This document shows positions 14,606-50,969 of a stretch of DNA of 64,000 nt, piece by piece (the first letter of the stretch is position 1; every line of letters starts with the position of its first letter). This stretch comes from a virus: the IMG/VR virus record IMGVR_UViG_3300025536_000011. One strand, given 5' to 3'. The position numbers and the translations under genes are program-made. Under the pieces are notes generated by a model. That model ran no database searches. It saw only the letters and a list, made by a program, of their open reading frames with translations, and had not been told where the DNA came from.

Positions 14606-14634
14606 ATGATATCACGGGCTTGAACGGGCGTCCA
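14606..14634 (-). promoter_or_regulatory. promoter of the repeated family (degenerate -35)
   Basis: TGGACG-17-TATCAT with TG extension. Confidence 0.55.
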
Positions 14635-14663
14635 CTAGGACGCCCGTTCTTCTCATTTTGAGA

Positions 14664-14861
14664 CTAGATGAGCCCGAGAATCAGAATCCACGAATCCCGG
14701 CCGTGAGTACAACGGCCGTCCGGTTCGACGGTACAGCCACAGGGCGTTTTCGCCTTGCCAGTGGACATCCAACGTTCCATCGTGGCGACGGAAGGGGCTT
14801 TCGTGGCCCGCTTGACGGGCCGTTTCGGAGTAGCGTCATTCCACGAATTCCAGTCGCTCAT
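14664..14861 (-). CDS. hypothetical protein
   Basis: ATG 14861, GGAGCGA upstream; CGCTVEPDGRCTHG. Confidence 0.7.
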   Translation of the reverse strand: MSDWNSWNDATPKRPVKRATKAPSVATMERWMSTGKAKTPCGCTVEPDGRCTHGRDSWILILGLI

Positions 14862-14933
14862 GATTTTCGCTCCGTTGCGGGCCGCACTATTGCGGCCCGA
14901 CAAAGAGTATATCGGCACGTTTCCCGAAAAGCT

Positions 14934-15200
14934 TTACTCCGTTTCCCAGAAAATCTCAATGTTTTGCTTATCGCATACCCAGTCAGGAATTACGTCGATA
15001 TCAGCATATTCCCATTCGGCCCTATCGGGCCGAATGATTAGGTGGGCTCTGCCCTGCCCAATGTCCCGATAGTGCGGGCTTGTGCTAGGCTCATGATCCC
15101 GGACCGGATTGATATAGATATGCGGCCCGTGCGGAATATCGCCGATACAGTCGGCGATATAGTAGGTAGCAATTGCCCGGCCGAAGTAGTGTCGCGTCAT
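14934..15200 (-). CDS. hypothetical protein
   Basis: ATG 15200 just after upstream stop. Confidence 0.5.
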   Translation of the reverse strand: MTRHYFGRAIATYYIADCIGDIPHGPHIYINPVRDHEPSTSPHYRDIGQGRAHLIIRPDRAEWEYADIDVIPDWVCDKQNIEIFWETE

Positions 15201-15201
15201 G

Positions 15202-15318
15202 TTATTGTCCGATTTTCTGGCAAGCCTCAAGCGTAGCATAGGCAGCTGCCATGATTTTCAGGCCCAGAAAGACAAGCCCGACGCATCCGAGAATCAGGAG
15301 GGCCGCTCGCGTTTTCAT
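15202..15318 (-). CDS. small membrane peptide
   Basis: GGAGCGAAGC upstream; hydrophobic core. Confidence 0.55.
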   Translation of the reverse strand: MKTRAALLILGCVGLVFLGLKIMAAAYATLEACQKIGQ

Positions 15319-15379
15319 CGTTGCTTCGCTCCGTTGCGTCGTCGGACGATTCCGAACGACGCAAAAGAATATCACGTTT

Positions 15380-15595
15380 TCAGGCCCCGTCAAATTTGCC
15401 GAAACGATTTTCGTTAATGGCGAAACTATCAGGGTTTATCGCAGCCCAACAAGCGGCCGCTTCCAATAGGGGCTTCGCCGGATTCGAGCCTAGCATCATC
15501 ATAGCCCGGACGGCCGTTTCGCATGTTACGGCATTGCACGCTACGGTTTGCGGGCCGCATTCTTCCGCTAGGGCAATCCATTCGGCGATTGTCAT
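15380..15595 (-). CDS. hypothetical protein
   Basis: ATGA coupling. Confidence 0.55.
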   Translation of the reverse strand: MTIAEWIALAEECGPQTVACNAVTCETAVRAMMMLGSNPAKPLLEAAACWAAINPDSFAINENRFGKFDGA

Positions 15596-15891
15596 GATGT
15601 CGAATCCTCTTGATCGGTTTTCAGGGAATATCCCTCAAGCCCCTTAACAGCTTGAGCGGCCGGATTAGAACGTAACCAAGTATCGGTGGATTCGCAAAGC
15701 CCGGAAGCGGGGCCATCGTCTCGAATGTCGGCCCGACCATACTGGCCACTGTCGAGATAGTGGCGACGGCCCGTCGGGCCGACTAGCACGACGGTTTCCT
15801 TATCCGGCCGACATTGGACGTATCGGCCGGATTCTAGCGTCCCAATGGGCCGCTCAAGAGCCGTCATGAGGGTAACGTTTCGGTATTCCAT
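15592..15891 (-). CDS. hypothetical protein
   Basis: GGAGCGAAGC upstream. Confidence 0.65.
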   Translation of the reverse strand: MEYRNVTLMTALERPIGTLESGRYVQCRPDKETVVLVGPTGRRHYLDSGQYGRADIRDDGPASGLCESTDTWLRSNPAAQAVKGLEGYSLKTDQEDSTS

Positions 15892-15939
15892 GTTAGCTTC
15901 GCTCCGTTTGCCGTCCCAACGGGAATTAACTTCGGCAAA

Positions 15940-15968
15940 AGAGTATCACGGGCTTTAGCCCGTGTCAA
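15940..15968 (-). promoter_or_regulatory. hairpin-spacer promoter
   Basis: TTGACACGGGCTAAAGCCCGTGATACTCT; stem CACGGGC/GCCCGTG. Confidence 0.8.
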
Positions 15969-15976
15969 ATAATTCT

Positions 15977-16237
15977 TTAAACCGTTTGGTAGCTTAGGAT
16001 TCGGCCCGAATACTTTGCAAATTTCGCCCGAAGCTTTCGGACGAGAATCACGTTTCCGTTTGGCATGAGCCTAACATGGGAACAGATACCATTTCCAAGG
16101 CCCATGAAATAGTCAATCCACGGCTGCCATACGTCGTCAGTAAAATCCCAAATACCGCGATTGCCGTCCGCACGGCACGCGAAAGCAATAGCTTTGTCGT
16201 GGTCGGCAAAACGACGACGATTGCGATTCGTCTTCAT
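15977..16237 (-). CDS. hypothetical protein
   Basis: ATG 16237, GGAG upstream. Confidence 0.6.
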   Translation of the reverse strand: MKTNRNRRRFADHDKAIAFACRADGNRGIWDFTDDVWQPWIDYFMGLGNGICSHVRLMPNGNVILVRKLRAKFAKYSGRILSYQTV

Positions 16238-16266
16238 GTTAGGGGCTCCGTTTACATTGACCGAAA

Positions 16267-16295
16267 AGAGTATCACGGCCCATGCGGGCCGTCAA
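16267..16295 (-). promoter_or_regulatory. hairpin-spacer promoter
   Basis: TTGACGGCCCGCATGGGCCGTGATACTCT; stem ACGGCCC/GGGCCGT. Confidence 0.8.
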
Positions 16296-16296
16296 A

Positions 16297-16527
16297 TCTC
16301 ATTTTGAGAGAAACGAATTCTCATTTTGAACGTGATATGGTTCATTCTGACGCAAATTCCTGAAAATCAATGATTTATAGGCAAATTGAACGTATTTCAG
16401 GAGTTATCGCATCGGCTGAAAGCCGAGCGATTCCGCACGGCAAGAATTGCCGATTGCACCAAAACGTGCATTCTCATTCTGAGAAACGTTACCGTTAGGT
16501 AACACTCAAATTGATTCTCAAAGTGAG
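16297..16527. repeat. cluster of TCTCA-N3-TGAGA palindromes in a non-coding gap
   Basis: perfect copies at about 16297, 16472, 16515, partial copies at about 16320 and 16503. Confidence 0.6.
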
Positions 16528-16578
16528 AGGGGCGGGATTCGGTCGTCCTCGCCCCTTATGTCGATTTTCTGGATACTT

Positions 16579-16746
16579 CTAGCAATTCTGCGAATTGGCA
16601 TAGCTTAAAGCTTGCGTTTTCAATTTCTGGGCTTTAACTCCGTCTAGAAAGCCCTGAATATACGCTTGAGAACCGCTTGCATAAAGCCCCCCATACTGTC
16701 TCAAGCCCGCTTGAAAGCCCCGATTGTATTCCGCTTCGCGTTTCAT
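16579..16746 (-). CDS. 55-aa protein absent from the ORF track (MKREAEYNRGFQAG...), probably leaderless
   Basis: translated by hand; ATG 7 nt after the -10 box. Confidence 0.6.
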   Translation of the reverse strand: MKREAEYNRGFQAGLRQYGGLYASGSQAYIQGFLDGVKAQKLKTQALSYANSQNC

Positions 16747-16752
16747 GCTAGT

Positions 16753-16780
16753 AGAATATCCCGTTTTCAGGCAATGTCAA
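16753..16780 (-). promoter_or_regulatory. sigma70-type promoter
   Basis: TTGACA-16-TATTCT. Confidence 0.65.
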
Positions 16781-16790
16781 GTGGGGAAAT

Positions 16791-17012
16791 TTACCCAATT
16801 CGCTCGAATGCGGCCGATACTGCCCCGCTCCATTCTTGATAGTCAAGCGATTGTTCATTAAAGCTAGCTCGCCTAGCCCCAGCTTGCCAAGCTTTGTCAA
16901 ATCGCATATTAGGGTTTTCCCTAAGCGTTTGGGCAGTCTCGACTACCATATCTGTAAACGTTTCAAAGCCAGTCTTTCGCTCGAATCGGCTAACTTTCTT
17001 AGAATAATCCAT
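16791..17012 (-). CDS. hypothetical protein
   Basis: ORF downstream of promoter and leader hairpin. Confidence 0.6.
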   Translation of the reverse strand: MDYSKKVSRFERKTGFETFTDMVVETAQTLRENPNMRFDKAWQAGARRASFNEQSLDYQEWSGAVSAAFERIG

Positions 17013-17066
17013 ATTCGCTAGCTCACTTAAAGGGCCGCACTATTGCGGGCCGCTTGAGACACTAGA

Positions 17067-17094
17067 ATAGTATCACGGCCGAGTCGGGAGTCAA
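17067..17094 (-). promoter_or_regulatory. promoter of the repeated family
   Basis: TTGACT-16-TACTAT; -35 contains the stop codon of 17091-17384. Confidence 0.7.
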
Positions 17095-17384: not shown

Positions 17385-17430
17385 TATTCGCTTCGCTCAT
17401 TTTAAGGGCCGCACTATCGCGGACACCTAG

Positions 17431-17458
17431 AGAGTATCACGGTTCAACGGGAAGTCAA
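17431..17458 (-). promoter_or_regulatory. promoter of the repeated family
   Basis: TTGACT-16-TACTCT. Confidence 0.7.
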
Positions 17459-18884: not shown

Positions 18885-18901
18885 TTGCTTCTCCGAAGCA
18901 A

Positions 18902-19146: not shown

Positions 19147-19175
19147 AGTGTATCACGGCCCTTGTGCCGTGTCAA
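19147..19175 (-). promoter_or_regulatory. hairpin-spacer promoter
   Basis: TTGACACGGCACAAGGGCCGTGATACACT; stem CACGGC/GCCGTG. Confidence 0.8.
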
Positions 19176-19330
19176 GTGCCGGAAAAGATTTCCACTTCGA
19201 TTCTATGCCATAATGGCAGTCGCCGCTTGAGTTTAAATAAAGCCCATTTAATGCTACGGGCTTGCATAAATCCCGTTTTAACTTGTCCGGTTTCTAATTC
19301 CACCCAAAAAGTGTAAATTTTACTTACCAT
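19172..19330 (-). CDS. hypothetical protein
   Basis: ATG 19330; stop lies within the next -35. Confidence 0.5.
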   Translation of the reverse strand: MVSKIYTFWVELETGQVKTGFMQARSIKWALFKLKRRLPLWHRIEVEIFSGT

Positions 19331-19631
19331 CGCGGCTCCAATATTTTTCAGCGTTACGCATAGCGAAACGAATATTCTCTGCTCCAACCGGATTAGCCGA
19401 ATGGATTGCCCAAGCAAGCTTAGGCAACGTGCCGAAGTATGCCATAAGACTAATAGATTGAGCTACAGTGTAGCCGGTTTCCTCTTTAGGCGAGCTATCG
19501 CCTAAGTCGTGGTCGAAACTAATAAAGCTTACTTGGCCAGTCGCAAGAGCCGCCCTAGCCTCTTCCGCAGTTCGGCAGTGCCGGTCAAAATCCTCGGGCA
19601 TCGGCCGAACGTCGTCAAGCCAAAGTCTCAT
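19320..19631 (-). CDS. cyclic-phosphate processing receiver-domain-like protein
   Basis: MRLWLDDVRPMP..ISFDHDLG..HSANPVG. Confidence 0.75.
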   Translation of the reverse strand: MRLWLDDVRPMPEDFDRHCRTAEEARAALATGQVSFISFDHDLGDSSPKEETGYTVAQSISLMAYFGTLPKLAWAIHSANPVGAENIRFAMRNAEKYWSRDGK

Positions 19632-19663: not shown

Positions 19664-19691
19664 AATATATCACTTCCTAGCAGATTGTCAA
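19664..19691 (-). promoter_or_regulatory. promoter of the repeated family
   Basis: TTGACA-16-TATATT. Confidence 0.65.
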
Positions 19692-19895
19692 GTTAATAAA
19701 ATAATCGGCCCGGATTGCTCCGGGCCGATGCCTTGTCCTAGCACGCTTTAGGCTATGCCAATATTTACTTTGCACTAAATACCGTCTAGGTCGATACTTA
19801 GCAGGGATTCATTCGCTCTTTACATATTTATATACATTGCCGGGAGAATCCTCATTTTAAGCTTCCGCTAAGCGGCTTATCCCTAAGACACTAAA

Positions 19896-19923
19896 AGCCT
19901 ATCACGCGGGCTTAGCTTGTCAA
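19896..19923 (-). promoter_or_regulatory. promoter whose -35 lies within an 11-bp hairpin
   Basis: CACGCGGGCTT-gacaagct-AAGCCCGCGTG-ATA on the minus strand. Confidence 0.65.
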
Positions 19924-20607
19924 GCCCGCGTGAACAAATCCCGTATTATCTTTCTTAGCACGGGCTTTCGGAGAAAGCCCGACGATACAAGGGCTTAAGT
20001 CCAAAAATCTTAGATCGTGGATATCGCCGTCTATAACGGCATAGCCGTTAAACCATTTAGGAATATCGTCTCGAAAGACGATAGCAACGTTAAACCCACG
20101 CTCAAGAGCCGCTTTGCATTCCAGCCAATTATTTTCGCTTGCCGAAAACGTCAAGTGATAATTAGTGGGCAAAGTATAGCCCGACTTGAGCCTATGCGAA
20201 AGCTTTGTATAGTCGTAGAATTGCAGTGTCGGGAATTCGGCAAAAATTTCCGGCATACGCTTTTCCCATACGATATCAGAAGTGCCGTTTAGCCTGATAG
20301 CGGGAATTAAACCTTGCCGCTTAGCGGCCCGCACAAGAGCCGCTAAATCGTTTCTAAGCAACGTTCGGAATTCTTCCGGCTTCTGGTACAAAAGCCGGGT
20401 TTTCCTCACGCGGGCCGCTTGCACGGGCCGATATTTCCCATATCCCGAGGTATTCAGGCAAGCGGCCCGACATCCGGCCGACGATTTTGGGCAGACGTTT
20501 CGCCCGCTCAAGCTTGCCGGTGCTAAGTGTAGGATAGCATTTAAATAGCCGAATGCCTTAGCCTTTTCTATCTTATGATTATCCAAAGTGATAAGGGCAA
20601 AGCCCAT
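19912..20607 (-). CDS. GP88-like phage protein (Cys-cluster, radical-SAM-like)
   Basis: VCPKSSAGCRAACLN..RLNGTSDI..FYDYTK..DGDIHDLRFLD. Confidence 0.7.
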   Translation of the reverse strand: MGFALITLDNHKIEKAKAFGYLNAILHLAPASLSGRNVCPKSSAGCRAACLNTSGYGKYRPVQAARVRKTRLLYQKPEEFRTLLRNDLAALVRAAKRQGLIPAIRLNGTSDIVWEKRMPEIFAEFPTLQFYDYTKLSHRLKSGYTLPTNYHLTFSASENNWLECKAALERGFNVAIVFRDDIPKWFNGYAVIDGDIHDLRFLDLSPCIVGLSPKARAKKDNTGFVHAGLTS

Positions 20608-20609
20608 AT

Positions 20610-20792
20610 TTATTCGCCCCCTTTGAATAACTTGATATAGAGCCCGACAATGCTAATAAGAATAACCCATAGCAGAGTCTCCCATATAACCCTAATGGGA
20701 TTTTCCAGCCCGTCCGAATCAAGCCCGGCCGCTTCATCGCGGCCGGGCTTAGTTCTACTCACGGAACGGGCGAACGCTCTGCCCCCGATCAC
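20610..20792 (-). CDS. small membrane protein
   Basis: C-terminal hydrophobic helix; ATGA overlap. Confidence 0.4.
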   Translation of the reverse strand: MIGGRAFARSVSRTKPGRDEAAGLDSDGLENPIRVIWETLLWVILISIVGLYIKLFKGGE

Positions 20793-21148
20793 GCGGGAAG
20801 AACCGCCCCGCTATTCTCGGGCACCGAATAATCGACTCCTCCAATGCGAAGTGTGAGGATACCTTCAACGGCGATAAAACGCCGATTCTTACTGGCATCA
20901 TCGGGATTATATCCCGAATCGCCGGGCATGAGATATACCATAATCAGCCCGTTAGCACCGGGCGAGAATCCCAACTTTCCGCCCTTGAGCCCCTTAGTGA
21001 CGTTTTCTGCCAGTCGGCAACGATATTCGCGTGCCGTATACTGGCCCGTTTCCTTATTCGGCGTTCGCGGCCGGACGATAGCAGAGAAAATCTTACCGTT
21101 AGTCGATCCAATAAGATTAACCGCCTGAACTTGCGAGATAACTTTCAT
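20789..21148 (-). CDS. hypothetical protein (possible SH3/Sm-like fold)
   Basis: ATG 21148 with GGAGCGAAGC; fold is a guess. Confidence 0.55.
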   Translation of the reverse strand: MKVISQVQAVNLIGSTNGKIFSAIVRPRTPNKETGQYTAREYRCRLAENVTKGLKGGKLGFSPGANGLIMVYLMPGDSGYNPDDASKNRRFIAVEGILTLRIGGVDYSVPENSGAVLPA

Positions 21149-21189
21149 TAGCTTCGCTCCAATTATGAGCCGCACAATCGCGGCCCATT

Positions 21190-21217
21190 AGGTTATCACG
21201 TTCTAGCCTACTGTCAA
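21190..21217 (-). promoter_or_regulatory. promoter of the repeated family fused to the arm of a 14-bp hairpin
   Basis: TTGACA-16-TAACCT; hairpin about 21215-21246. Confidence 0.65.
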
Positions 21218-21260
21218 GCCCGGCCGCACGATTGCGGCCGGGCTTGCGAGACTCCAAAGC

Positions 21261-22262
21261 TTAGCTGATTCCGGCCGCTTCGGCAAGGAAAGCCCAGGAC
21301 TGGGCCTCGAACTTTCCAGCCGTGCCCCCGAGAATACTTTCGAGCCGCTTTTCGGCCGTCCGATTGCCCTTATTACCAGCCCAGTTAGAGTTAAGATAGG
21401 TGATACCCTGGAAAATCGCCCCGAACGTCTCGGGCTTGCCAGCATAATTGATAGGATTGCGGGCCGCTCCGACGATACGTTCCGCGAGATTGATTTTCTG
21501 GGCCGAAACGTTATCCAAGTCGTTTCGGTCAATCCCGAGAAGCTTATCAACGGTAGACTCCACCGAAGCCGGGCAATCCATGAGAAGACCCAACTTTTCG
21601 GAATGAGCCGCAATTTCCTTCCGGGCCGCTTCCCAAGTCGCCCGAGCGAATTGGAGTTTATCCTTGATATCGCCCGTGTGACGGATCGAACCATCGGCAC
21701 CGCCACTAAAACCCGTCGTGATCGTATTATGGCAAACGACACGGTGCCGAACAAGCTTATAACGGATTGCGTTTCCGTCGTGAAAATTCTGGAAAACGAG
21801 ATAATTCTCATAGGGCGAAGTGTCGCCCGGCACGGAAAGAGCCGCATCGTTCCCATAATCGAGACGGAGGGCGATAACTTCGCTCTTTCCATCATAGAGA
21901 ACGAAAGCCGCATCGGTTGACCCAAAACCCTCGCGGGCGAAATAATCGAGAATCTCTGCCATATCGGCCGGATTGCACGGGCTATATCGCTCCGTAACCG
22001 TGGCGTCCGACAGAATGAATCCGTCGTCACTTCTTACGATATGGAATTGATTCGGAACTTCCGAGAACGTAGGACCATCCGGCCCAATAATACATTGATA
22101 GGCGGGCCGCTTCTCGACATTATAGCCGAGTCCAACAAGCTTAGCGAATTCACTAGGGACCGGGATTCGGCCGTTATCGTCCGGCTCGATAACCCGGCCC
22201 TTATTATGCCATGCGGCCCCTCGGGCATAGCCCGCTCGACTCTTGACTACCATATCGGCCAT
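21261..22262 (-). CDS. DUF932 family protein
   Basis: AAWHNKG..VRSDDG..Y.LVFQNFHDG..RVVCHNTI..IRHTG. Confidence 0.8.
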   Translation of the reverse strand: MADMVVKSRAGYARGAAWHNKGRVIEPDDNGRIPVPSEFAKLVGLGYNVEKRPAYQCIIGPDGPTFSEVPNQFHIVRSDDGFILSDATVTERYSPCNPADMAEILDYFAREGFGSTDAAFVLYDGKSEVIALRLDYGNDAALSVPGDTSPYENYLVFQNFHDGNAIRYKLVRHRVVCHNTITTGFSGGADGSIRHTGDIKDKLQFARATWEAARKEIAAHSEKLGLLMDCPASVESTVDKLLGIDRNDLDNVSAQKINLAERIVGAARNPINYAGKPETFGAIFQGITYLNSNWAGNKGNRTAEKRLESILGGTAGKFEAQSWAFLAEAAGIS

Positions 22263-22317
22263 TGTTATTTATCTCCGTTGGGCCGCACTATTGCAGCCCG
22301 CTTTTGAATTCGCTTGA

Positions 22318-22346
22318 ATCTTATCACGGCCCTTGCGGGCCGTCAA
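22318..22346 (-). promoter_or_regulatory. hairpin-spacer promoter
   Basis: TTGACGGCCCGCAAGGGCCGTGATAAGAT. Confidence 0.8.
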
Positions 22347-22348
22347 GT

Positions 22349-22555
22349 TTAATCGAGCGGAATCGCGTCGGGCAAATTATTGCCGGAAAGATTTTCCGGC
22401 CGATACCGAATAACATAACTGCCGTCGTTGCAGACATCATAACCCGAACACCGCTCGAAAATAACTCCGTTCCACGAAATACGCTTAGGATAAGCTTTAT
22501 CGACAATGTTTCGCGTCTCGAATCGCAATGCTCCAATAAAGGCGGCGGGCTTCAT
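22349..22555 (-). CDS. hypothetical protein
   Basis: ATG 22555, GGAGCTAAG upstream. Confidence 0.55.
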   Translation of the reverse strand: MKPAAFIGALRFETRNIVDKAYPKRISWNGVIFERCSGYDVCNDGSYVIRYRPENLSGNNLPDAIPLD

Positions 22556-22590
22556 ATTCTTAGCTCCGGCCGGATTATTCCGGCACCGAC

Positions 22591-22619
22591 AATCTATCAC
22601 TGCCCGACAGGGCAGTCAA
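22591..22619 (-). promoter_or_regulatory. hairpin-spacer promoter with covarying stem
   Basis: TTGACTGCCCTGTCGGGCAGTGATAGATT; stem ACTGCCC/GGGCAGT. Confidence 0.8.
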
Positions 22620-22849
22620 ATTTCTCTTGCAATATTATCACTTCGACGATAGGCGACACTACCAGTATCCGAATTGAACGCGGAGCGAACATAGGTCAAG
22701 CCCTGATATTCCAGGCACAACGGCAAGCTTGAAAAGCTTGCATAATCCCGACAGTCGATATCAGGATAGATGAAACTATCGCTCGAATCAAGATCGGCAA
22801 TGACAATCTTAATCGGCAGGGCTTCGATTCGCTTCGCAGTCGTTTCCAT
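22616..22849 (-). CDS. hypothetical protein, probably leaderless
   Basis: ATG 7 nt after -10; stop within the next -35. Confidence 0.65.
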   Translation of the reverse strand: METTAKRIEALPIKIVIADLDSSDSFIYPDIDCRDYASFSSLPLCLEYQGLTYVRSAFNSDTGSVAYRRSDNIAREI

Positions 22850-22855
22850 GCCACT

Positions 22856-22884
22856 AAGATATCACGGCCCGCAAGAGCCGTCAA
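22856..22884 (-). promoter_or_regulatory. hairpin-spacer promoter
   Basis: TTGACGGCTCTTGCGGGCCGTGATATCTT. Confidence 0.8.
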
Positions 22885-22938
22885 ATAAATCTAGCCTCTA
22901 CATATATAGACGGATCGAAAATATTTTCAGGCAGTCAC

Positions 22939-22966
22939 TTGACGGCATGAAATACCGTGATACTCT
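22939..22966 (+). promoter_or_regulatory. promoter of the repeated family
   Basis: TTGACG-16-TACTCT. Confidence 0.65.
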
Positions 22967-23029
22967 GCTAGTGTCAATCGGGCACCTTGACCAATCGGCC
23001 AATGGCTCGAAATGTCGCGTGCGGCTCGA

Positions 23030-23058
23030 TTGACGCGGCCCGGTTCGCCTGATACCGG
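23030..23058 (+). promoter_or_regulatory. possible degenerate promoter of the family
   Basis: TTGACG-17-TACCGG (weak -10). Confidence 0.35.
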
Positions 23059-23116
23059 AACGGTGCCGATTATTGGCGTGGCCGGGCGGATTATCAGGAA
23101 TTCGCCCGGATTTTCC

Positions 23117-23145
23117 TTGACGGCCCGCACGGGCCGTGATACTCT
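23117..23145 (+). promoter_or_regulatory. hairpin-spacer promoter
   Basis: TTGACGGCCCGCACGGGCCGTGATACTCT. Confidence 0.8.
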
Positions 23146-23157
23146 TCTCGTGAATTA

Positions 23158-23237
23158 GTCGCCCGCCTAACCTAGTATCGCTCAATTGGTAAAGCCAGCG
23201 AGAAAGGGAAGTCGCCCAGAGCGGCCAGGCGGGCGAC
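23158..23237 (+). ncRNA. candidate 80-nt structured RNA
   Basis: 11-bp closing stem 23158-68/23227-37; internal GCTCAATTGGTAAAGC resembles a tRNA D arm; upstream promoter. Confidence 0.45.
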
Positions 23238-23409
23238 ATTTTCTCATATTGACAACCTGTGCGATTTCGCACGGGTGCGTGCGTTTCCGCTCGGTCCCGC
23301 CGCCGCGTGCGTTCCCCCGGCCGGGCCGCCCGACGAGCCCCGAAACTAATAGTAAGGCATTTCGGGAGGCTCCTGAAAATTTCCCCCCGTAAGGGCGAAT
23401 CTCTCACTT

Positions 23410-23727
23410 CTAGTATTTTTGCGGCATCGCTGCAAAGTAAGGGAAAATCTCTTGCTTACGCGATTTTTGCGTAAAATATAGCCCCATGCTATTTTTCTGC
23501 ATCGGCCCGTCGTTCGAGTCGAAAACAATATGACGATTACAGCTACAGCGAGACGGCATAAGCTGCCGCTCAATCACACGCACCGTGCCGCAAGGGCATT
23601 GTGCCCGTACAACAGTCGCACGCCATACGTCGGCCCGCTTAGTGGCTTCCTCCACCATAACGTTAGGACGGCCGCTATTGATGTCCATAGCGGCCGTAAA
23701 GAGCCGGTCAAGATCACTCATATTCAT
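23410..23727 (-). CDS. Cys-containing hypothetical protein, probably leaderless
   Basis: CPCG..CSC; ATG 7 nt after -10. Confidence 0.6.
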   Translation of the reverse strand: MNMSDLDRLFTAAMDINSGRPNVMVEEATKRADVWRATVVRAQCPCGTVRVIERQLMPSRCSCNRHIVFDSNDGPMQKNSMGLYFTQKSRKQEIFPYFAAMPQKY

Positions 23728-23733
23728 GCTAGC

Positions 23734-23761
23734 AGTATATCACTCCCTAGTCGTGAGTCAA
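23734..23761 (-). promoter_or_regulatory. promoter of the repeated family
   Basis: TTGACT-16-TATACT. Confidence 0.7.
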
Positions 23762-23777
23762 GTGCGGCATAGCCGCA

Positions 23778-24134
23778 CTAAGGAATTAATTCATGTGCCT
23801 TAGCAAATTCAGTCAACATAAGTGGCCATTCTGAAACTTTAACATAAGTGTTATCATGAATTGCTTGTATATTTTGTAAGAAAGGTATTGATACATCAGG
23901 AGCTAATTCTTCTCCAAAAATATCAATAGGAGTATAGATACCAAGTAATACGTGGATTCCTTTACTGCCAAAATCAAATTCCGGCCGATAACACGAGTCA
24001 GGAATAAGAGCCCCGATAGCACATTTGGTTCCATTGCGACCGCGATAAAGACACTTTGCACCATCTATAGCTCTACAATTTTGCTTTAAAAGGTGATCGC
24101 GGACACGATCATAAATAATTTGGCGAGTTAGCAT
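23778..24134 (-). CDS. hypothetical phage protein
   Basis: HLLKQ..CLYRG..G.KCAIG.LIPD. Confidence 0.7.
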   Translation of the reverse strand: MLTRQIIYDRVRDHLLKQNCRAIDGAKCLYRGRNGTKCAIGALIPDSCYRPEFDFGSKGIHVLLGIYTPIDIFGEELAPDVSIPFLQNIQAIHDNTYVKVSEWPLMLTEFAKAHELIP

Positions 24135-24883: not shown

Positions 24884-25243
24884 TTACCCGTTAATAAACA
24901 CTCCCTCATTCGTCGAGTAAGAGGTACGCAAGCCAGCCTCCGCCACAGTCTTTGCACAATCTCGGCAAGGCCGCGACATCTTAATTTCTCCTTGCCGGTT
25001 AATACGGCAACAAATAATACGATAACCGGCAAGACTTTGCCGGTTCAGCATGGCACGGGCCTTAGCAATGGCTCGTACTTCGGCATGAGCGGCCGAGAAG
25101 CAGCCGGAGCCTCTAGGATGCGTCTTATGGACAAGGTTACAGGCAGCGGCAATGACTCTTCCGCCCTTCCCTACGATAAGGGCGGAATGACGGAATTGGT
25201 CTCCGTTGCTTTGCAAGGCAGTACGAAGGGCGATCCGCACCAT
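24884..25243 (-). CDS. cytidine/dCMP deaminase-fold protein
   Basis: HAEVRAI and SRPCRDC Zn-binding motifs. Confidence 0.85.
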   Translation of the reverse strand: MVRIALRTALQSNGDQFRHSALIVGKGGRVIAAACNLVHKTHPRGSGCFSAAHAEVRAIAKARAMLNRQSLAGYRIICCRINRQGEIKMSRPCRDCAKTVAEAGLRTSYSTNEGVFING

Positions 25244-25269: not shown

Positions 25270-25298
25270 AGTGTATCACGGCTCGCAAGAGACGTCAA
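25270..25298 (-). promoter_or_regulatory. hairpin-spacer promoter (one mismatch)
   Basis: TTGACGTCTCTTGCGAGCCGTGATACACT. Confidence 0.75.
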
Positions 25299-26164: not shown

Positions 26165-26193
26165 AGCTTATCACGGCTGCAAGCAGCCGTCAA
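26165..26193 (-). promoter_or_regulatory. hairpin-spacer promoter
   Basis: TTGACGGCTGCTTGCAGCCGTGATAAGCT; stem ACGGCTG/CAGCCGT. Confidence 0.8.
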
Positions 26194-28093: not shown

Positions 28094-28221
28094 TTGCTTC
28101 TCCGAAGCAATTAATTTTAATGGTCGGGTGACAGGGAATCGGACCCTGATGAATTTCACGGGATTTTATAAGAATCCTGGGCGTCCACCGCCCACTCACC
28201 CGTAGCGATCAAGACACATAT

Positions 28222-28249
28222 AGCTTATCACGGCGTTGCCATGAGTCAA
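28222..28249 (-). promoter_or_regulatory. promoter of the repeated family
   Basis: TTGACT-16-TAAGCT; -35 holds the stop of 28246-28503. Confidence 0.7.
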
Positions 28250-28870: not shown

Positions 28871-28899
28871 AACATATCACGGCCTATATGCCGTGTCAA
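28871..28899 (-). promoter_or_regulatory. hairpin-spacer promoter
   Basis: TTGACACGGCATATAGGCCGTGATATGTT. Confidence 0.8.
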
Positions 28900-30438: not shown

Positions 30439-30467
30439 ACTATATCACGGCGGCGAGCCGCCGTCAA
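30439..30467 (-). promoter_or_regulatory. hairpin-spacer promoter (left member of a divergent pair)
   Basis: TTGACGGCGGCTCGCCGCCGTGATATAGT; stem ACGGCGG/CCGCCGT. Confidence 0.8.
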
Positions 30468-30554: not shown

Positions 30555-30582
30555 TTGACACGCGGCAAAACCGCGTTATAAT
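30555..30582 (+). promoter_or_regulatory. consensus sigma70 promoter with hairpin spacer (right member of the divergent pair)
   Basis: TTGACACGCGGCAAAACCGCGTTATAAT. Confidence 0.85.
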
Positions 30583-30648: not shown

Positions 30649-31050
30649 GTGAAGATGCAGACGGAGATTCTGCCGGGAACATTTTTGATCGGAGATCAAA
30701 TGAAAATCTTAGATAAGATGGAAACCCTACAATTGCTTTGCAAGAGCAATAAAAAGTGGGGCATGTTTATTTCGTGGGTTGATTCAGGGGGAAATAGGCC
30801 AGTCTTTAGATATGACTTAAAAGACACGCTAGAGACTCCTGTTCCATATCTTTGTTATAAAAATGACGCACAAGCTATTATGGACGGCGAGGCTTATCTA
30901 TTGTTTAATGATGAGTCCGAAATGTGTAATCATTATGATCTAACAGTTGGTGACGATGGACCGACGCAGCTAAACCCATATAATGGACCCTTTAGAGTCT
31001 ATGCTATTACTTGCTCGCCTAAAGGGCAATTGATGAATGAAAACACTTGA
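30649..31050 (+). CDS. hypothetical protein
   Basis: ORF; stop within the next -35. Confidence 0.65.
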   Translation: MKMQTEILPGTFLIGDQMKILDKMETLQLLCKSNKKWGMFISWVDSGGNRPVFRYDLKDTLETPVPYLCYKNDAQAIMDGEAYLLFNDESEMCNHYDLTVGDDGPTQLNPYNGPFRVYAITCSPKGQLMNENT

Positions 31051-31075
31051 CTCACGCCTGACGGCGTGATACAAT
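31047..31075 (+). promoter_or_regulatory. hairpin-spacer promoter
   Basis: TTGACTCACGCCTGACGGCGTGATACAAT; stem TCACGCC/GGCGTGA. Confidence 0.8.
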
Positions 31076-31348: not shown

Positions 31349-31376
31349 TTGACAGCCTTAAAATAAGTGATATAAA
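31349..31376 (+). promoter_or_regulatory. promoter upstream of tRNA-Leu
   Basis: TTGACA-16-TATAAA with GTGA. Confidence 0.6.
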
Positions 31377-32433: not shown

Positions 32434-32461
32434 TTGACAGAAGCCGAACCCGTGTTATAAT
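32434..32461 (+). promoter_or_regulatory. extended -10 sigma70 promoter with -35 enclosed by a hairpin
   Basis: TTGACA-16-TATAAT with TG extension; ACGGGTT-A-GGCTT/AAGCC-G-AACCCGT. Confidence 0.8.
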
Positions 32462-33884: not shown

Positions 33885-35162
33885 TTGGCACAGAGACATT
33901 TTTTAATTAGATTCTTTCAAAAGGTTAATTTTAACACCAATAAATTCTGGGATGGAACAGAATGTTGGGAATGGAAGGGATCTAATGACTATTATTATGG
34001 ACATTTTTCTTTTAATGGTCGCCAAATCAAGACTCACAGATTCTCATATCAATATTTTGTAGATGAAGATTTAAAACCATATTTAGAGGTAGGACATTTA
34101 TGTAATAATACTTTGTGTCTAAGGCCATCACATTTAAAAGCAATGACTCCTAAAGAAAACGTACATTATAGCAATACTACTGCACATTTAAATTCCTTAA
34201 AAACCCACTGTAAGCACGGTCATGAATTTACTCCAGAAAATACATATATACGTAAGGATCGCAATGGCAATAGAGAGTGTATTACGTGTCATAGAATAGC
34301 AACAGGATATTGTGGCGGTATGCTAAATAGCGAAAAAACCCACTGTATTAATGGACACGAATTTACAGAAGAGAACACATACATATATAGCAAAAGTAAT
34401 TATCGAGCATGTAAGGCGTGTTCTAAAAATCGTTATCTACAAAAGAAGAGAAAAATGCAAATTTTAATTTTGGGAGACACGCACGGAAAGTATGATTTGG
34501 AGCATTTAATTATACAAAAAGTTATTAATAAAAATTCCAATATAAAAGCTATATTTCATTGCGGTGACTGGGGATATGCGTGGCCAACAAAATATGGTCC
34601 TGCTATTTGGGAGTATCCATTTAAAATACCATTCCATGTTACTTTAGGCAATCATGATCCATACTCATTCTATCAAACAGCAAAATTACCAGATTGGCTT
34701 CATATACAGGAACGTGGCAGTACATTAAATATTCATGGTAAAAAGATACTTTGGTGCGGTGGGGCATTTTCAATTGACCGTGCCTATCGTATCTTAAATC
34801 AAAGCTATTGGCTCGAAGAAACCATTAAACAGTCTGATCTTGATAAGTGCTTGGCTCAAGAAGGGCCAATTGATTTATTAGTAACTCACGAAACAGCAGA
34901 GTATTACCCTTTAAAAGCCAAGAGGCCGGAATTTACAGAAGGTAGATCGGATCGAATTGCTGTGCAAACAATAATAGATAAATTTAAACCTAAGTATCAT
35001 ACGTTTGGCCACTGGCATTCTCCTGATAATGGAGATTATATCCATCAAGATGGTAGTATAACTAAATGGGCCTGTATCCCCGAAGTAGATTCTGGGCACT
35101 TTGCCGTGTGGGATGGAGAGAATTTAGAGCTAAGCTGGCTTGACACGACCGGAAGGCCGTGA
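33885..35162 (+). CDS. HNH endonuclease fused in frame to a calcineurin-like metallophosphoesterase
   Basis: ECWEW..HRFSY..GHLCNN..C.RP.HL, two KTHC..GHEFT.ENTY repeats; from M at 34455 GDTHG, GDWG, GNHD, THE, GHWH. Confidence 0.85.
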   Translation: MAQRHFLIRFFQKVNFNTNKFWDGTECWEWKGSNDYYYGHFSFNGRQIKTHRFSYQYFVDEDLKPYLEVGHLCNNTLCLRPSHLKAMTPKENVHYSNTTAHLNSLKTHCKHGHEFTPENTYIRKDRNGNRECITCHRIATGYCGGMLNSEKTHCINGHEFTEENTYIYSKSNYRACKACSKNRYLQKKRKMQILILGDTHGKYDLEHLIIQKVINKNSNIKAIFHCGDWGYAWPTKYGPAIWEYPFKIPFHVTLGNHDPYSFYQTAKLPDWLHIQERGSTLNIHGKKILWCGGAFSIDRAYRILNQSYWLEETIKQSDLDKCLAQEGPIDLLVTHETAEYYPLKAKRPEFTEGRSDRIAVQTIIDKFKPKYHTFGHWHSPDNGDYIHQDGSITKWACIPEVDSGHFAVWDGENLELSWLDTTGRP

Positions 35163-35168
35163 TACGAT
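35140..35168 (+). promoter_or_regulatory. hairpin-spacer promoter (one mismatch)
   Basis: TTGACACGACCGGAAGGCCGTGATACGAT. Confidence 0.75.
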
Positions 35169-40572: not shown

Positions 40573-40601
40573 TTGACACGGCCTAATGGCCGTGATATCG
40601 T
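40573..40601 (+). promoter_or_regulatory. hairpin-spacer promoter
   Basis: TTGACACGGCCTAATGGCCGTGATATCGT. Confidence 0.8.
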
Positions 40602-48118: not shown

Positions 48119-48147
48119 TTGACACGACCGCTAGGCTGTGGTAAAGT
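48119..48147 (+). promoter_or_regulatory. promoter of the RNA/tRNA cluster
   Basis: TTGACA-17-TAAAGT with TG extension. Confidence 0.7.
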
Positions 48148-48350: not shown

Positions 48351-48360
48351 AATTTTAAAT

Positions 48361-48436: not shown

Positions 48437-48469
48437 TTTTGCAAACTGAATATAGGAATTAGAACATGA

Positions 48470-48545
48470 GCGGGTTTAATGTTTAATGGTAGCATTTCTG
48501 GCTTCCAACCAGACCGTAGGAGTTCGAATCTCCTAACCCGTTCCA
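48470..48545 (+). tRNA. tRNA-Gly(UCC)
   Basis: TCTGG-CTTCCAA-CCAGA; U73; encoded CCA. Confidence 0.92.
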
Positions 48546-48642
48546 TTTTTTACTATCGTAACCTTCGCAACAATGGCCAATCAAGGCTCTCGTCATTTAA
48601 ATGGGCAATTAAAGCCTGTATACATATAGGAGCAAAGCGACT

Positions 48643-49227
48643 ATGAAATTTAAGCTTCGCTGGCTTTGGGCCGCTCATTATCAACAAGAAGTCCCCCAAT
48701 GGACTCGTGATTTTTGTAATTGGGGACCGCGTAAGTGGCTTCGATTTCGGCGTTGGGATATCCAGCGATTCTTTTGGGATTATTTTTATTTGCTGCTCTT
48801 TAAGGGCTACAAAAGCAAAGACATGTGGGGCGTGGATCATGCCATGTTTGCCTGGGTTTTACCTCGATTAAAGGCATTTAAAGCCTTGAATCGAGAGAAA
48901 TATCCCGGCTGGTGTGAGAATGAAGATAACTATGCTCATAGATGGGAACGCAAAGGCGAGTGTACTCTTGAAGCCACGGGTAAATGCACCATTTGTAAAT
49001 TTGATGAACAGCGTGCTGTTCAGAAATGGGAGGGTATTCTTGACGATATGATATTCGCCATTCAAAGTTATGTTGATGGTCATTGGGATGGCCCCGCATT
49101 TGGTGGATATTCTATCGGATTCTGGTATCCTGAAAAGAGTAAATGGATTAGTGGTACTCCCGAACATAAGAGAGCCGAACGCGGCTACGAGTTATTTTGT
49201 AGACATATTTTTTCACTGTGGGATTAG
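48643..49227 (+). CDS. hypothetical phage protein
   Basis: D.W..DH.....LPRLKAFK..W..ILD.MIFA. Confidence 0.7.
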   Translation: MKFKLRWLWAAHYQQEVPQWTRDFCNWGPRKWLRFRRWDIQRFFWDYFYLLLFKGYKSKDMWGVDHAMFAWVLPRLKAFKALNREKYPGWCENEDNYAHRWERKGECTLEATGKCTICKFDEQRAVQKWEGILDDMIFAIQSYVDGHWDGPAFGGYSIGFWYPEKSKWISGTPEHKRAERGYELFCRHIFSLWD

Positions 49228-49243
49228 CCCGGAGGGCTAAAAA

Positions 49244-49486
49244 ATGCTAATTGAAAATGAGCAACAAAAAAAAGCGATAGGTGATGCGGCTATTGCCCTT
49301 TTAAATTCTATGACAATAACAGGCGTTCCTTCGGCTCACTTAACATTTAAATGCAACGACGGAACCAAGTTAATGATTTTAATTGCACACGACGAAGAGG
49401 CTGATTATATTAAGGATCTTTTGGCAGACGCAGACGATATCAAACTGAGTTATAAAGTTGGAGAAGATAATAATGGGTCTAACTAA
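49244..49486 (+). CDS. hypothetical protein
   Basis: GGA-triloop RBS hairpin upstream. Confidence 0.6.
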   Translation: MLIENEQQKKAIGDAAIALLNSMTITGVPSAHLTFKCNDGTKLMILIAHDEEADYIKDLLADADDIKLSYKVGEDNNGSN

Positions 49487-49643
49487 CGAAGAAGTAAAAG
49501 ACGAAATCGAGAATGACGAAATCGGTTATGTCGTACTTAACCTATTAAATCCAAGGGACATTAACGATCCGAGGCTAGCCGAATTAGTGGCTAAGGCTGC
49601 TAAAGCCTTAAATGATATCGAATCTTATTTAGGTATCGAATAA
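49473..49643 (+). CDS. hypothetical protein
   Basis: ATG 49473, GGAG upstream. Confidence 0.55.
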   Translation: MGLTNEEVKDEIENDEIGYVVLNLLNPRDINDPRLAELVAKAAKALNDIESYLGIE

Positions 49644-49659
49644 TCGGAGGTTATGGGAA

Positions 49660-50007
49660 ATGAGAATACTAGACAGAAATAGAAACATCAGATTCCGTCT
49701 AAGCAAATTTGATAACGCATATCCAGACAATCCATTAGCTATTGCCACTATAGATGAAATGATTCATGGATTAACAGAAATTAAAGCTAAGCTTGATTCA
49801 GATTCTATAGCAACATTTGTCTCATCAGAGGATGAGCTAGATCCAGTTTGCTATGAAATACAATTCCGCTCTTATAGAGAAGAAACGCCAGACGAAGAGT
49901 CTCATAGAATTAAAGGAGAAGCATTGTGCAAAGAGCGTGAGCTAGAACGACTAAAGAGACAGGCAGAACAGCTTGGCTATCAATTGAATCCGAAGGAGCA
50001 ATCTTGA
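49660..50007 (+). CDS. hypothetical protein
   Basis: ORF in run. Confidence 0.6.
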   Translation: MRILDRNRNIRFRLSKFDNAYPDNPLAIATIDEMIHGLTEIKAKLDSDSIATFVSSEDELDPVCYEIQFRSYREETPDEESHRIKGEALCKERELERLKRQAEQLGYQLNPKEQS

Positions 50008-50372
50008 ACATCCCAAAGGGATTCATTAAAATAGGCTCTTTCGGAGTAGACGCCGGGCTTTGCTGGATTGGAGATCCGTGCTACATTCTGCATAAAGATC
50101 AGCCCCCAAAAGACATTGGAAAAGATTGGAGCGATTTTTGTGATATTCTAGGCGATAAACATGAAGTATCTGGAGATTATCAAACTGCTGAATTTAACTA
50201 CGATAAGGGACATTCTGGTTTGGGACTTTGTATTCAAAGCGGATCTGGTGATGGCTGTTATGATGTTTATATTAAAAAGGGATCGGACGGATATATCCAA
50301 CAGGCCCTAATAGATTTCGTCGGGTATCCCGACGAAAATGAAGAATGCGACGACTCGATAGAGGAGGAGTAA
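50004..50372 (+). CDS. hypothetical phage protein
   Basis: IGSFGVDAGLCWIGDPCY..SG.GDGCY.V. Confidence 0.7.
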   Translation: MNIPKGFIKIGSFGVDAGLCWIGDPCYILHKDQPPKDIGKDWSDFCDILGDKHEVSGDYQTAEFNYDKGHSGLGLCIQSGSGDGCYDVYIKKGSDGYIQQALIDFVGYPDENEECDDSIEEE

Positions 50373-50710
50373 TGCTAATTAAATTTAAACTAGCTCTTAA
50401 TAACATGAATGATACCTGGATCGTAAAATTATGTAAATTTATGATAGATGGAGAACACATTACAATAGATGCCAAGTATATTGTTGCAATAGGTTTACCT
50501 GATACTCCCCGGCACCTTGAGGGTCTCTTATGTATTTGGACAAAGTTACGAGATGAGAAAGGAATCGGAATTCCACTATGTTTAATCAGTAAGGCTGAAA
50601 ATATTGAGGCTCTAGAACAATGGCAAGCGTTTTTAGATACTAACAAAACCAGCAAAGTATTCCCTGAAATCAAGAAGCCTAATCGTCCGCGAGGATTATA
50701 TGGAAATTAA
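50372..50710 (+). CDS. hypothetical protein
   Basis: GGAGG upstream of ATG 50372. Confidence 0.55.
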   Translation: MLIKFKLALNNMNDTWIVKLCKFMIDGEHITIDAKYIVAIGLPDTPRHLEGLLCIWTKLRDEKGIGIPLCLISKAENIEALEQWQAFLDTNKTSKVFPEIKKPNRPRGLYGN

Positions 50711-50945
50711 AGCAGAGTGCTCAGCTTGTGGGGCTACAGGACTTTATAAAGGATTTGCAGAACCGGAAGGAACGGCGGTAGTTTGTCATAATTGTAATGG
50801 CACCGGATGTCAGACTATGAAATATACGCCATTTACAGGCCGTAAACGAAAACGCGGAATTAAGCGTGTCATAGGTGATGGCGGGCTTTGGTTTGCCCGC
50901 AAGGGCAACGAGCAAACTATCTCGATAGAAGATTTTTACGCTTGA
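50700..50945 (+). CDS. DnaJ-type zinc-finger small protein
   Basis: CSACGATG and CHNCNGTG. Confidence 0.75.
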   Translation: MEIKAECSACGATGLYKGFAEPEGTAVVCHNCNGTGCQTMKYTPFTGRKRKRGIKRVIGDGGLWFARKGNEQTISIEDFYA

Positions 50946-50969
50946 CACTGCCGCTGGACGTGATATCAT
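50942..50969 (+). promoter_or_regulatory. promoter upstream of tRNA-Arg
   Basis: TTGACA-16-TATCAT; -35 contains the upstream stop. Confidence 0.7.

Follow-up and report, generated by a model that had tools for sequence, protein, structure and literature searches.

Repeated early promoters that carry a stem-loop have been described in the T4-like phages RB49/phi1, PST and nt-1, where strong sigma70-like early promoters, each with its own stem-loop and known as PeSLs, are scattered through hyperplastic regions rich in ORFan genes (Arbiol et al. 2010, PMC2839356; Comeau et al. 2014, PMC4122927). The stem-loops lie most often in the interval from the -35 to the -10 box and otherwise overlap the boxes or precede them, and they have been described both as attenuators and as recombination linkers (PMC2839356). 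One of them cut reporter expression as strongly as rrnB T1, and PeSLs that recombine with each other accounted for indels between close relatives and gave rise to mini-circles (PMC2839356; PMC4122927). Here we analyse a promoter family of this kind in an uncultured large phage (IMG/VR record IMGVR_UViG_3300025536_000011; contig of 177,274 bp, completeness estimate about 75%). The stretch analysed, hereafter the window, is 64,000 nt long and corresponds to contig bases 127-64126 on the reverse strand; its recurring element is the motif TTGAC-N13/14-GTGATA, in which the segment between the two boxes frequently forms a hairpin.

Two further types of hairpin promoter, and one type of temporal control, are relevant to this element. 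An artificial E. coli promoter regulated by a cruciform, in which an inverted repeat with longer arms was engineered into the interval separating the -35 from the -10 box, was reportedly built by Horwitz and Loeb in 1988; we know of no established natural family of cruciform-regulated promoters. In SPO1-type temporal control the early promoters match the consensus of the host primary sigma factor, and phage sigma factors take over later. The early promoters of phage N4 have no -35 and -10 boxes and consist of a GC-rich hairpin of 5-7 bp with a 3-nt loop, centred at -11, with the start 8 nt after the hairpin; they require the 3500-aa virion RNA polymerase, gyrase and single-stranded DNA-binding protein, and hairpins of 5-7 bp can thus extrude in vivo (PMC4496689).

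The elements of the window resemble PeSLs in most respects. A strong sigma70-type early promoter recurs in many copies amid small ORFan genes, a stem-loop is placed at the promoter in several positional subclasses of which the spacer is the commonest, the upstream gene's stop codon falls at the element (here, in about half of 54 copies, within the promoter itself), and indels and shuffling are bounded by the elements, with a chimeric element at the junction (one junction here). Unlike the PeSL phages, this phage shows no T4-like kinship, with its DnaE-type polymerase, its long tape-measure protein and sigma factors of its own. Its promoter depends on an extended -10 with a TAnnnT hexamer, its stems are of ACGGCC type and very regular (7 bp plus 4 nt, filling the 17-bp spacer) instead of the Gn/Cn stems of PeSLs, the stop codon is often the TGA within TTGAC, and some of the mRNAs appear to be leaderless. 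All sequence-level features of PeSLs were found, save the AT-rich upstream region and membership of the T4-like group. On this comparison the elements are best classed as an analogue of PeSLs in an unrelated phage, not as a homologue.

An extended -10 promoter repeated across the early region

The exact motif occurs 26 times in the window (18 copies on the minus strand, 8 on the plus strand), against 0.08 expected from shuffles. All copies but one, at 6063, lie within 14606-50969, and a scan of the whole contig found none in the remaining 113 kb, which confines the exact motif to the early region. With one mismatch permitted, about 8-10 further copies, degenerate and plausible, come into view (14606, 16753, 18016, 18099, 30555, 32434, 48119 and others), giving a family of about 35. 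Across the early 45 kb the copies form one block on the minus strand from 14.6 to 30.5 kb and another on the plus strand from 30.5 to 51 kb, the two diverging at about 30.5 kb, and their density reaches about one per 600 bp over 14.6-31 kb. Nearly all are directed into small open reading frames (ORFs) or tRNAs, and five stand directly before tRNA genes.

Aligned, the copies yield the consensus r-C-TTGACa, a spacer of 16 or 17 bp, and GTGnTAnnnT, that is, a -35 box and an extended -10 (TGn) with a minimal TAnnnT hexamer. The T at -7 is preserved in nearly all copies, and the -10 is followed by a conserved t-A/G-G-y and then by a purine at the seventh position. For the statistics that follow we used 54 strict promoters, drawn from the window and from a related 181-kb contig (28 from the latter). 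The predicted +1 is a purine in 44 of the 54 (G in 30, A in 14), and in 7 of them the ATG that opens an ORF of at least 40 codons lies exactly at +1, by far the modal offset. An ATG occupies this position at the minus-strand window promoters 23734, 26165, 30439 and 16753 (at 28871 it lies 3 nt past +1) and at promoters 11566, 13652, 15664 and 27269 of the relative. The purine and the ATG at +1 are evidence from within the sequence that supports the -10 and the start site as assigned. They imply that the genes with an ATG at +1 would be read from leaderless mRNAs, and these, together with the TAnnnT hexamer, hint at a host outside the Proteobacteria.

We infer from consensus and positions that the motif is an early promoter read by the RNA polymerase of the host carrying its primary (group-1) sigma factor. 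This agrees with a preliminary description of the same DNA, which had set these elements beside the sigma70 consensus, with an extended -10, had found nearly all of them directed into a downstream gene or RNA and had counted 31 of them, a figure that proves about right. The contig encodes three sigma70-family (Sigma70_r2) proteins (window 3889-4518, minus strand; C1:123032-123223, plus strand; C1:173680-173871, minus strand). Profile searches of the contig, about 75% complete, detected no RNA polymerase gene of either the T7-like or the multisubunit type; PF00940 (T7-like RNA polymerase) had 0 matches on it, though the control for this profile likewise matched no genome. Three sigma genes and no detectable RNA polymerase indicate that the phage depends on the host core polymerase, and the trio suggests that middle and late transcription follow a sigma cascade. 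In combining host-type early promoters with several sigma-family genes the phage resembles SPO1 in the general layout of its control.

These data also bear on whether the elements could be N4-like hairpin promoters read by a phage-encoded polymerase delivered with the virion, a system that the preliminary description had cited as a precedent. The likeness is superficial: a short GC-rich hairpin, here of 7 bp, sits in an early promoter, and some stem positions vary while pairing persists. However, the hairpin here, with its 4-nt loop, extends from about -32 to -15 and has its centre at about -24 and not -11; it is flanked by a full primary-sigma -35 and extended -10, and from the stem to the start the distance is about 21 nt instead of 8 nt. 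The two giant virion proteins of the contig are a tape-measure protein (1724 aa) and a lectin/PKD fibre (2772 aa), and the profile searches described above found no T7-like polymerase domain. Nothing similar to the N4 mechanism was found on this contig, about 75% complete, and given the anatomy of the promoters we regard it as extremely improbable here.

Base pairing in the promoter spacer

Perfect stems of at least 6 bp are present in 11 of the 26 exact copies, all with a 17-bp spacer, and nine of these have a 7-bp stem and a 4-nt loop (Table 1). Three further 17-bp copies have a 7-bp stem with one non-Watson-Crick pair (T.G at 22856, T.C at 25270, A.C at 35140), so that the spacer palindrome, one-mismatch stems included, is found in 14 of the 15 exact copies of this spacer class. 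The arm sequences given in the preliminary description were all present where it had placed them. Its observations that the 16-bp copies mostly lack a spacer palindrome, and that two of them (19896, 12 bp; 32434, about 12 bp with one mismatch) instead enclose the -35 in a longer hairpin, were borne out as well.

Three null models, run 2000 times each, were compared with the 11 copies that have a stem of at least 6 bp. Shuffling the inner spacer gave a mean of 0.46 such copies (maximum 5), permuting the alignment columns independently a mean of 0.76 (maximum 5), and swapping right halves among copies a mean of 4.5 (maximum 10). Palindromy is thus above what the conserved flanks force, and the value of 4.5 for right-half swaps means that the shared ACGGC/GCCGT core explains part of it, not all. 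As an outside control we used 119 chance matches to TTGACGGC-N8-GCCGTGATA in unrelated genomes and metagenomes, where the inner two positions pair in 13 against 7.4 expected, several of the 13 being duplicates; in this phage they are paired in essentially every copy. The matches to this pattern across viral, genome and metagenome collections were single, in unrelated taxa and at about the chance rate, gave no clue to the host and served as a control only. An unrelated element (L009/L060/L070: IMGVR_UViG_3300033434_000396, a Bacillota metagenome-assembled genome, Ga0316602_10000004) has a single promoter-like site, TTGACGGCAT-CAGT-ATGCCGTGATA, with a perfect 7-bp spacer palindrome; we took it as a chance-level match.

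The arms occur in two registers. The right arm, GGCCGTG, is fixed beside the -10, and the left arm is found either as TTGA-CACGGCC (register B) or as TTG-ACGGCCS (register A). In register A, 93.9% of cells are paired across 14 sequences from the window, the 181-kb relative and a further contig, L133, and pairing falls to 29-49% when the registers are slid. Changes on both sides of a pair are found in 10 cells against 3.2 +/- 1.3 in shuffles (0/500); one of these double changes lies in the row of L133 promoter 1236, which is a recombinant of 22591 and hence not independent. Register B is nearly invariant (CACGGCC/GGCCGTG), with one G-C swap. Folded as DNA, the perfect hairpins reach -7.4 to -9.4 kcal/mol (z -2.9 to -5.1), and the 16-bp-spacer copies do not fold. 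Taken together, the null models, the excess of double changes and the two registers indicate that base pairing in the spacer is itself maintained, beyond what the conserved flanks force.

A palindrome between the -35 and -10, the classic location of a repressor, could also be an operator: a dimeric phage or host protein would bind CACGGCC-N4-GGCCGTG, occlude RNA polymerase and thereby shut off or tune the early promoters in a coordinated manner. The 181-kb relative offers the pattern expected of two half-sites, namely 12 copies with identical arms and freely varying 4-nt centres. In the window, however, the inner two or three pairs change on both sides and stay complementary (CC/GG, TG/CA, GG/CC, CG/CG, and T-A for G-C at pair 3), and positions to which an operator is insensitive need no compensating change, so the double changes disfavour this explanation. 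The two registers place the ACGGCC half-sites 4 or 6 bp apart, and a 2-bp shift would be poorly tolerated by a rigid dimeric operator. The same hairpin is moreover placed outside the spacer (see below), the phage has sigma factors of its own for switching between promoter classes, and Pfam found no helix-turn-helix or other DNA-binding fold among 10 conserved early proteins, a weak point given the many ORFs that were not scanned. We therefore consider an operator unlikely.

Stem-loops outside the spacer and at the ends of upstream genes

Copies without a spacer hairpin often have a stem-loop that abuts the -35, encloses it or lies just upstream of it. Examples are 19664, 19896, 21190, 23734 and 32434 in the window and 8661, 14612, 22130 and 24152 in the 181-kb relative. 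At promoter 8661 the upstream hairpin uses the CACGGCC/GGCCGTG arms themselves, right after the end of the GP88 gene, and the relative's ortholog of promoter 32434 has a perfect 14-bp stem. The position of the stems in relation to the promoter varies likewise in both genomes.

The promoters also coincide with the ends of upstream genes. The stop codon that ends the upstream ORF is the TGA of TTGAC in 19 of the 54 strict promoters and the TGA of GTGATA in 7, as for the HNH/metallophosphoesterase gene that ends in promoter 35140, and in several more it lies at most 20 nt upstream. A GC-rich stem-loop right after the stop codon that ends a transcription unit recalls intrinsic terminators and repetitive extragenic palindromic (REP)-type 3' stem-loops. 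Unlike intrinsic terminators, the spacer hairpins have no adjoining U-tract, and their stems are shorter than the 11-14 bp of the canonical terminators nearby (e.g. 19704-19729); three of them pass a lenient terminator scan, by way of the T-rich -10 and discriminator. An attC-like or REP-like reading was set aside, the elements being 18 nt long and inside promoters, with no integrase or RAYT gene seen.

Relatives and recombination between promoter copies

The DUF932 protein of the window (21261-22262, minus strand) has homologues that are 57% identical on a 181-kb Logan contig, of which 40.6 kb were walked, and 64% identical on a 3.7-kb contig. The 181-kb relative carries 28 strict copies of the promoter, 16 of them with spacer hairpins; CACGGCC-N4-GGCCGTG is dominant (12 copies) and the loop differs in nearly every copy, and in the window the most repeated arm type is ACGGCCC, found three times. 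More distant relatives (L138-L140, DUF932 about 40% identical) have promoter arrays with mostly 16-bp spacers and essentially no spacer hairpins. Relatives thus share the promoter consensus at protein identities of 57%, 64% and about 40%. The hairpins are present in only two to three genomes, and their absence from the distant relatives indicates that the promoter is older and host-imposed and the nested hairpin a lineage-specific addition.

Gene presence, absence and order differ between the window and the 181-kb relative in units bounded by promoters. One such change could be followed at the nucleotide level. L133 promoter 1236 (1236-1264) combines the upstream flank and arms of 22591, whose 5' half thus reappears in it, with the -10 hexamer and 5' untranslated region (5'UTR) of 22318, and the 83-codon gene that lies between 22591 and 22318 (22349-22600) is present in the large relative and missing in L133. 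A chimeric promoter at the site of a missing gene is the signature of two promoter copies having recombined, with deletion or insertion as the outcome, and is direct evidence that promoter copies recombine. ACTGCCC/GGGCAGT upstream of DUF932 in L133 had at first the appearance of an orthologous compensatory change; its flanks show the two-promoter recombinant, and it was dropped as evidence of covariation.

Such recombination raises the question of whether the hairpins require selection at all. In a neutral account the modules spread by copy-and-paste or gene conversion, palindrome-templated (template-switch) repair keeps the arms complementary, and the covariation is mutational. The dominant arms specific to each genome (ACGGCCC three times in the window, CACGGCC 12 times in the relative) have the look of concerted evolution, the L133 chimera documents promoter recombination, the consensus supplies 2-4 of the 7 pairs free (AC/GT, CAC/GTG, CG/CG), and distant relatives manage without hairpins. 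On the other hand, alignable DNA of the window and the relative is only about 65-78% identical, and across the two genomes the arms remain paired despite saturation of loops and flanks with changes; the hairpins also occupy differing promoter positions in both, a pattern that would hardly come about unless a stem-loop close by were selected for. We regard the neutral account as distinctly unlikely.

A proposed composite promoter and stem-loop cassette

The explanation that we prefer, and to which we give about an even chance, is that these are composite promoter/stem-loop cassettes of the PeSL type, in which host-sigma early promoters would be combined with a stem-loop that attenuates read-through and with a patch for recombination. 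Each cassette would comprise one to four small genes, or one tRNA, and its own promoter. At the end of the upstream ORF a short GC-rich stem-loop would sit inside the spacer or else abut or enclose the -35. When transcription reads through from the upstream cassette, the stem-loop would form in the RNA and, on the precedent of PeSLs, would attenuate or insulate transcription or protect the 3' end, so that cassettes would be expressed independently. On the same precedent, the repeated promoter/hairpin modules of 25-29 bp would act as homology patches at which recombination inserts, deletes and shuffles cassettes. Such a role as RNA attenuator or insulator is suggested by the location where the upstream ORF ends, by what is known of PeSLs, and by the way in which terminator-like hairpins upstream of the promoter can take the stem-loop's place. 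Early transcription is probably replaced later through the three sigma-family proteins of the phage, and not by hairpin shut-off.

The preliminary description had gone further and proposed that selection on structure reflects a cruciform or single-stranded DNA switch. Its first part stands, pairing being kept as described above; the switch is not needed to explain it. In this alternative the palindrome, as a cruciform or a fold in single-stranded DNA, would extrude under negative supercoiling, such as could arise behind polymerases on the upstream cassette, or through a structure-specific phage protein. It would then either wreck the -35/-10 geometry, as extrusion would in the construct of Horwitz and Loeb with its inverted repeat in the spacer, or offer a target to a structure-specific phage factor, and the promoter would be switched off (or on). 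It is pairing and not sequence that is conserved, the GC-rich stems are stable as DNA over the range of energies given above, and the G-C-closed hairpins all carry CTTG or CTCG loops. For cruciform extrusion the reported lower limit is at repeat units of 6-7 bp (PMC6060812), the size of the stems here, and N4 hairpins of 5-7 bp extrude in vivo (PMC4496689). Against this, 18-bp palindromes are marginal for extrusion, the hairpin is not bound to the spacer and also abuts or encloses the -35, the promoter family is hairpin-free in distant relatives and in the 16-bp class, and no structure-specific factor was identified. The PeSL precedent covers the architecture without a cruciform and a chimeric promoter marks a cassette deletion, and we judge the switch quite improbable. 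If true, about 30 sigma70 promoters would make up a natural family gated by cruciforms and coupling the activity of adjacent cassettes, and the PeSL stem-loops of T4-like phages would have an overlooked DNA-level role.

Several observations weigh against the cassette explanation that we prefer. First, the hairpin of promoter 30439 is perfect and has no co-directional ORF upstream, a point that would favour the DNA switch, which in this case has a hairpin without an upstream transcript. Second, the non-Watson-Crick pairs of the promoter hairpins comprise 4 G.T and 3 A.C, with no sense-strand G.U bias, which lends a role at the RNA level no support and would speak for the DNA switch; over all one-mismatch hairpins the G.U and A.C counts are 12 and 3 in the window and 6 and 5 in the relative. 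Third, the stems run into GATAnnnT with no adjacent U-tract, and the spacer hairpins are hence not canonical intrinsic terminators. Fourth, an upstream ORF ends at 23 of 30 promoters with a hairpin and at 13 of 24 without one, a weak association (Fisher p = 0.09), with ORFs called by a crude longest-ORF rule. Fifth, the AT-rich stretch upstream of PeSLs is not found, the AT fraction in the 30 nt 5' of the promoters being 0.49-0.56 against a background of 0.57, and a conserved R-C precedes TTGAC instead. Sixth, a single junction could be resolved to the nucleotide as a clean chimera; flank-by-flank blastn of the window against the relative is too insensitive at 65-78% identity for further junctions. 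Lastly, the phage was found solely in DNA runs of subsurface metagenomes and no RNA run contains it, which leaves the start sites as predictions and the 3' ends as putative.

Genome context and other hairpins of the window

Besides the sigma and virion genes, the contig encodes a large terminase, a portal protein, a DnaB-like helicase, a DnaE-type DNA polymerase (phrog_405) and a ribonucleotide reductase. Megablast against GenBank phages gave 0 matches, tblastn against them with the DUF932 protein and the DNA polymerase gave distant matches only (at most 34% identity), and an IMG/VR search with the DNA polymerase found no relative. The early ORFs are mostly 45-150 aa and without a Pfam match; among the 10 conserved early proteins Pfam recognized GP88, a deaminase and a cREC_REC domain. 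The early cassettes encode a dCMP/cytidine deaminase-like protein (24884-25243, minus strand), a cREC_REC cyclic-phosphate processing receiver domain (19320-19631, minus strand), a GP88-family protein (19912-20607, minus strand) and an HNH-metallophosphoesterase fusion (33885-35162, plus strand), for which host-takeover or anti-defence functions are plausible.

ARAGORN called seven tRNAs in the window, three of which pass Rfam, and an Rfam scan matched tRNAs only. One ARAGORN call, tRNA-Ile with anticodon TAT (82 nt, 28121-28202, minus strand), is below the gathering score of the Rfam tRNA model. The G+C content is 50-55% at 14000-16000 and 20000-24000, against about 40% genome-wide. The ORFs at 14664-15364 have no homologue in the 181-kb relative, and several hairpins of 9-12 bp lie in this part of the window (14177-14218, 14622-14649, 15013-15036, 15136-15160); the segment may encode RNAs and not proteins.

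Perfect hairpins of at least 7 bp number 181 in the window (nesting counted) against 22.6 in shuffles, an approximately eight-fold excess, and the remaining 113 kb of the contig hold 103. Many of those in the window are at gene junctions, and some present GGA in a triloop (e.g. 18885-18901, 28094-28110). A second repeated hairpin, GCCGCRATHGTGCGGC, has a 6-bp stem and an ATAG-type loop and occurs in six sense-strand copies against 0.1 expected, mostly within 5'UTRs, 15-30 nt past where the start is predicted. Both relatives retain it in the 5'UTR of DUF932, and it may be a regulatory or processing site at the RNA level.

Table 1. Promoter copies and associated hairpins (window coordinates; arms and loop separated by slashes)
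Position	Strand	Spacer (bp)	Hairpin	Remarks
6063..6091	+	17	no palindrome	exact copy outside 14606-50969
15366..15393	-	16	none in spacer	
15940..15968	-	17	CACGGGC/TAAA/GCCCGTG	register B; G-C swap at pair 6; DNA fold -8.5 kcal/mol, z -4.8
16267..16295	-	17	ACGGCCC/GCAT/GGGCCGT	register A
17067..17094	-	16	none	upstream ORF TGA within -35
17431..17458	-	16	none	
19147..19175	-	17	CACGGC/ACAAGG/GCCGTG	upstream ORF TGA within -35
19664..19691	-	16	none in spacer	canonical terminator-like hairpin 19704-19729 before promoter
19704..19729	-		GC-rich, 11 bp, then T-run TATTTTATTA	12 nt upstream of -35 of promoter 19664
19896..19933	-	16	12 bp, TCACGCGGGCTT/GACAAGCT/AAGCCCGCGTGA	from upstream of -35 to GTGA of extended -10
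21190..21246	-	16	14 bp (21215-21246)	3' arm ends in TTG of -35
22318..22346	-	17	ACGGCCC/GCAA/GGGCCGT	DUF932 gene promoter; -9.2 kcal/mol; relative's ortholog has identical arms, loop GCTA
22591..22619	-	17	ACTGCCC/TGTC/GGGCAGT	G-C to T-A at pair 3; upstream ORF stop is TGA of TTGAC
22856..22884	-	17	ACGGCTC/TTGC/GGGCCGT	one T.G pair; ATG near +1
22939..22966	+	16	ACGGCAT/GAA/ATACCGT (quasi-hairpin)	one C.A
23117..23145	+	17	ACGGCCC/GCAC/GGGCCGT	within minus-strand block
23734..23779	-	16	8 bp, AGTGCGGC/TAT/GCCGCACT	abuts -35; ATG at +1, predicted leaderless
25270..25298	-	17	ACGTCTC/TTGC/GAGCCGT	one T.C mismatch; upstream of tRNA-Lys
26165..26193	-	17	ACGGCTG/CTTG/CAGCCGT	two inner pairs swapped; ATG at +1, predicted leaderless; upstream ORF TGA within -35
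28222..28249	-	16	TCATGGC/AAC/GCCGTGA (quasi-hairpin)	one T.G; upstream of tRNA-Ile
28871..28899	-	17	CACGGC/ATATAG/GCCGTG	
30439..30467	-	17	ACGGCGG/CTCG/CCGCCGT	first minus-strand promoter at divergent junction; ATG at +1, predicted leaderless
30555..30582	+		ACGCGG/CAAAA/CCGCGT	degenerate copy CGCGTTATAAT at divergent junction
31047..31075	+	17	TCACGCC/TGAC/GGCGTGA	third register; upstream ORF TGA within -35
31349..31376	+	16	none	upstream of tRNA-Leu
32434..32461	+	16	about 12 bp, one mismatch	GTGTTATAAT; long hairpin encloses -35
35140..35168	+	17	CACGACC/GGAA/GGCCGTG	one A.C; within last codons of HNH/metallophosphoesterase gene
40573..40601	+	17	CACGGCC/TAAT/GGCCGTG	dominant type in relative; -9.4 kcal/mol
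48119..48147	+	17	weak palindrome	GTGGTA variant; before RNA region and tRNA-Glu/Gly
50942..50969	+	16	none	upstream of tRNA-Arg; upstream ORF TGA within -35
14881-14896, 17034-17049, 17408-17423, 21169-21184, 21223-21238, 22282-22297	-		GCCGCRATHGTGCGGC	copies of second repeated hairpin

Implications

The PeSL architecture is already known from T4-like phages; what is new here is an example in an unrelated phage, not a new principle. Its regularity (7-bp stem, 4-nt loop, 17-bp spacer, two registers, leaderless starts predicted at +1) and the existence of hairpin-free relatives make the system a clean test bed for the question of why a stem-loop is placed inside a promoter, be it as RNA attenuator, recombination site or DNA switch. 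As read here, the architecture would not be peculiar to T4-like coliphages and vibriophages and would have arisen independently in an unrelated large phage of the subsurface, which supports composite modules as a general solution for the independent expression and shuffling of many accessory early genes.

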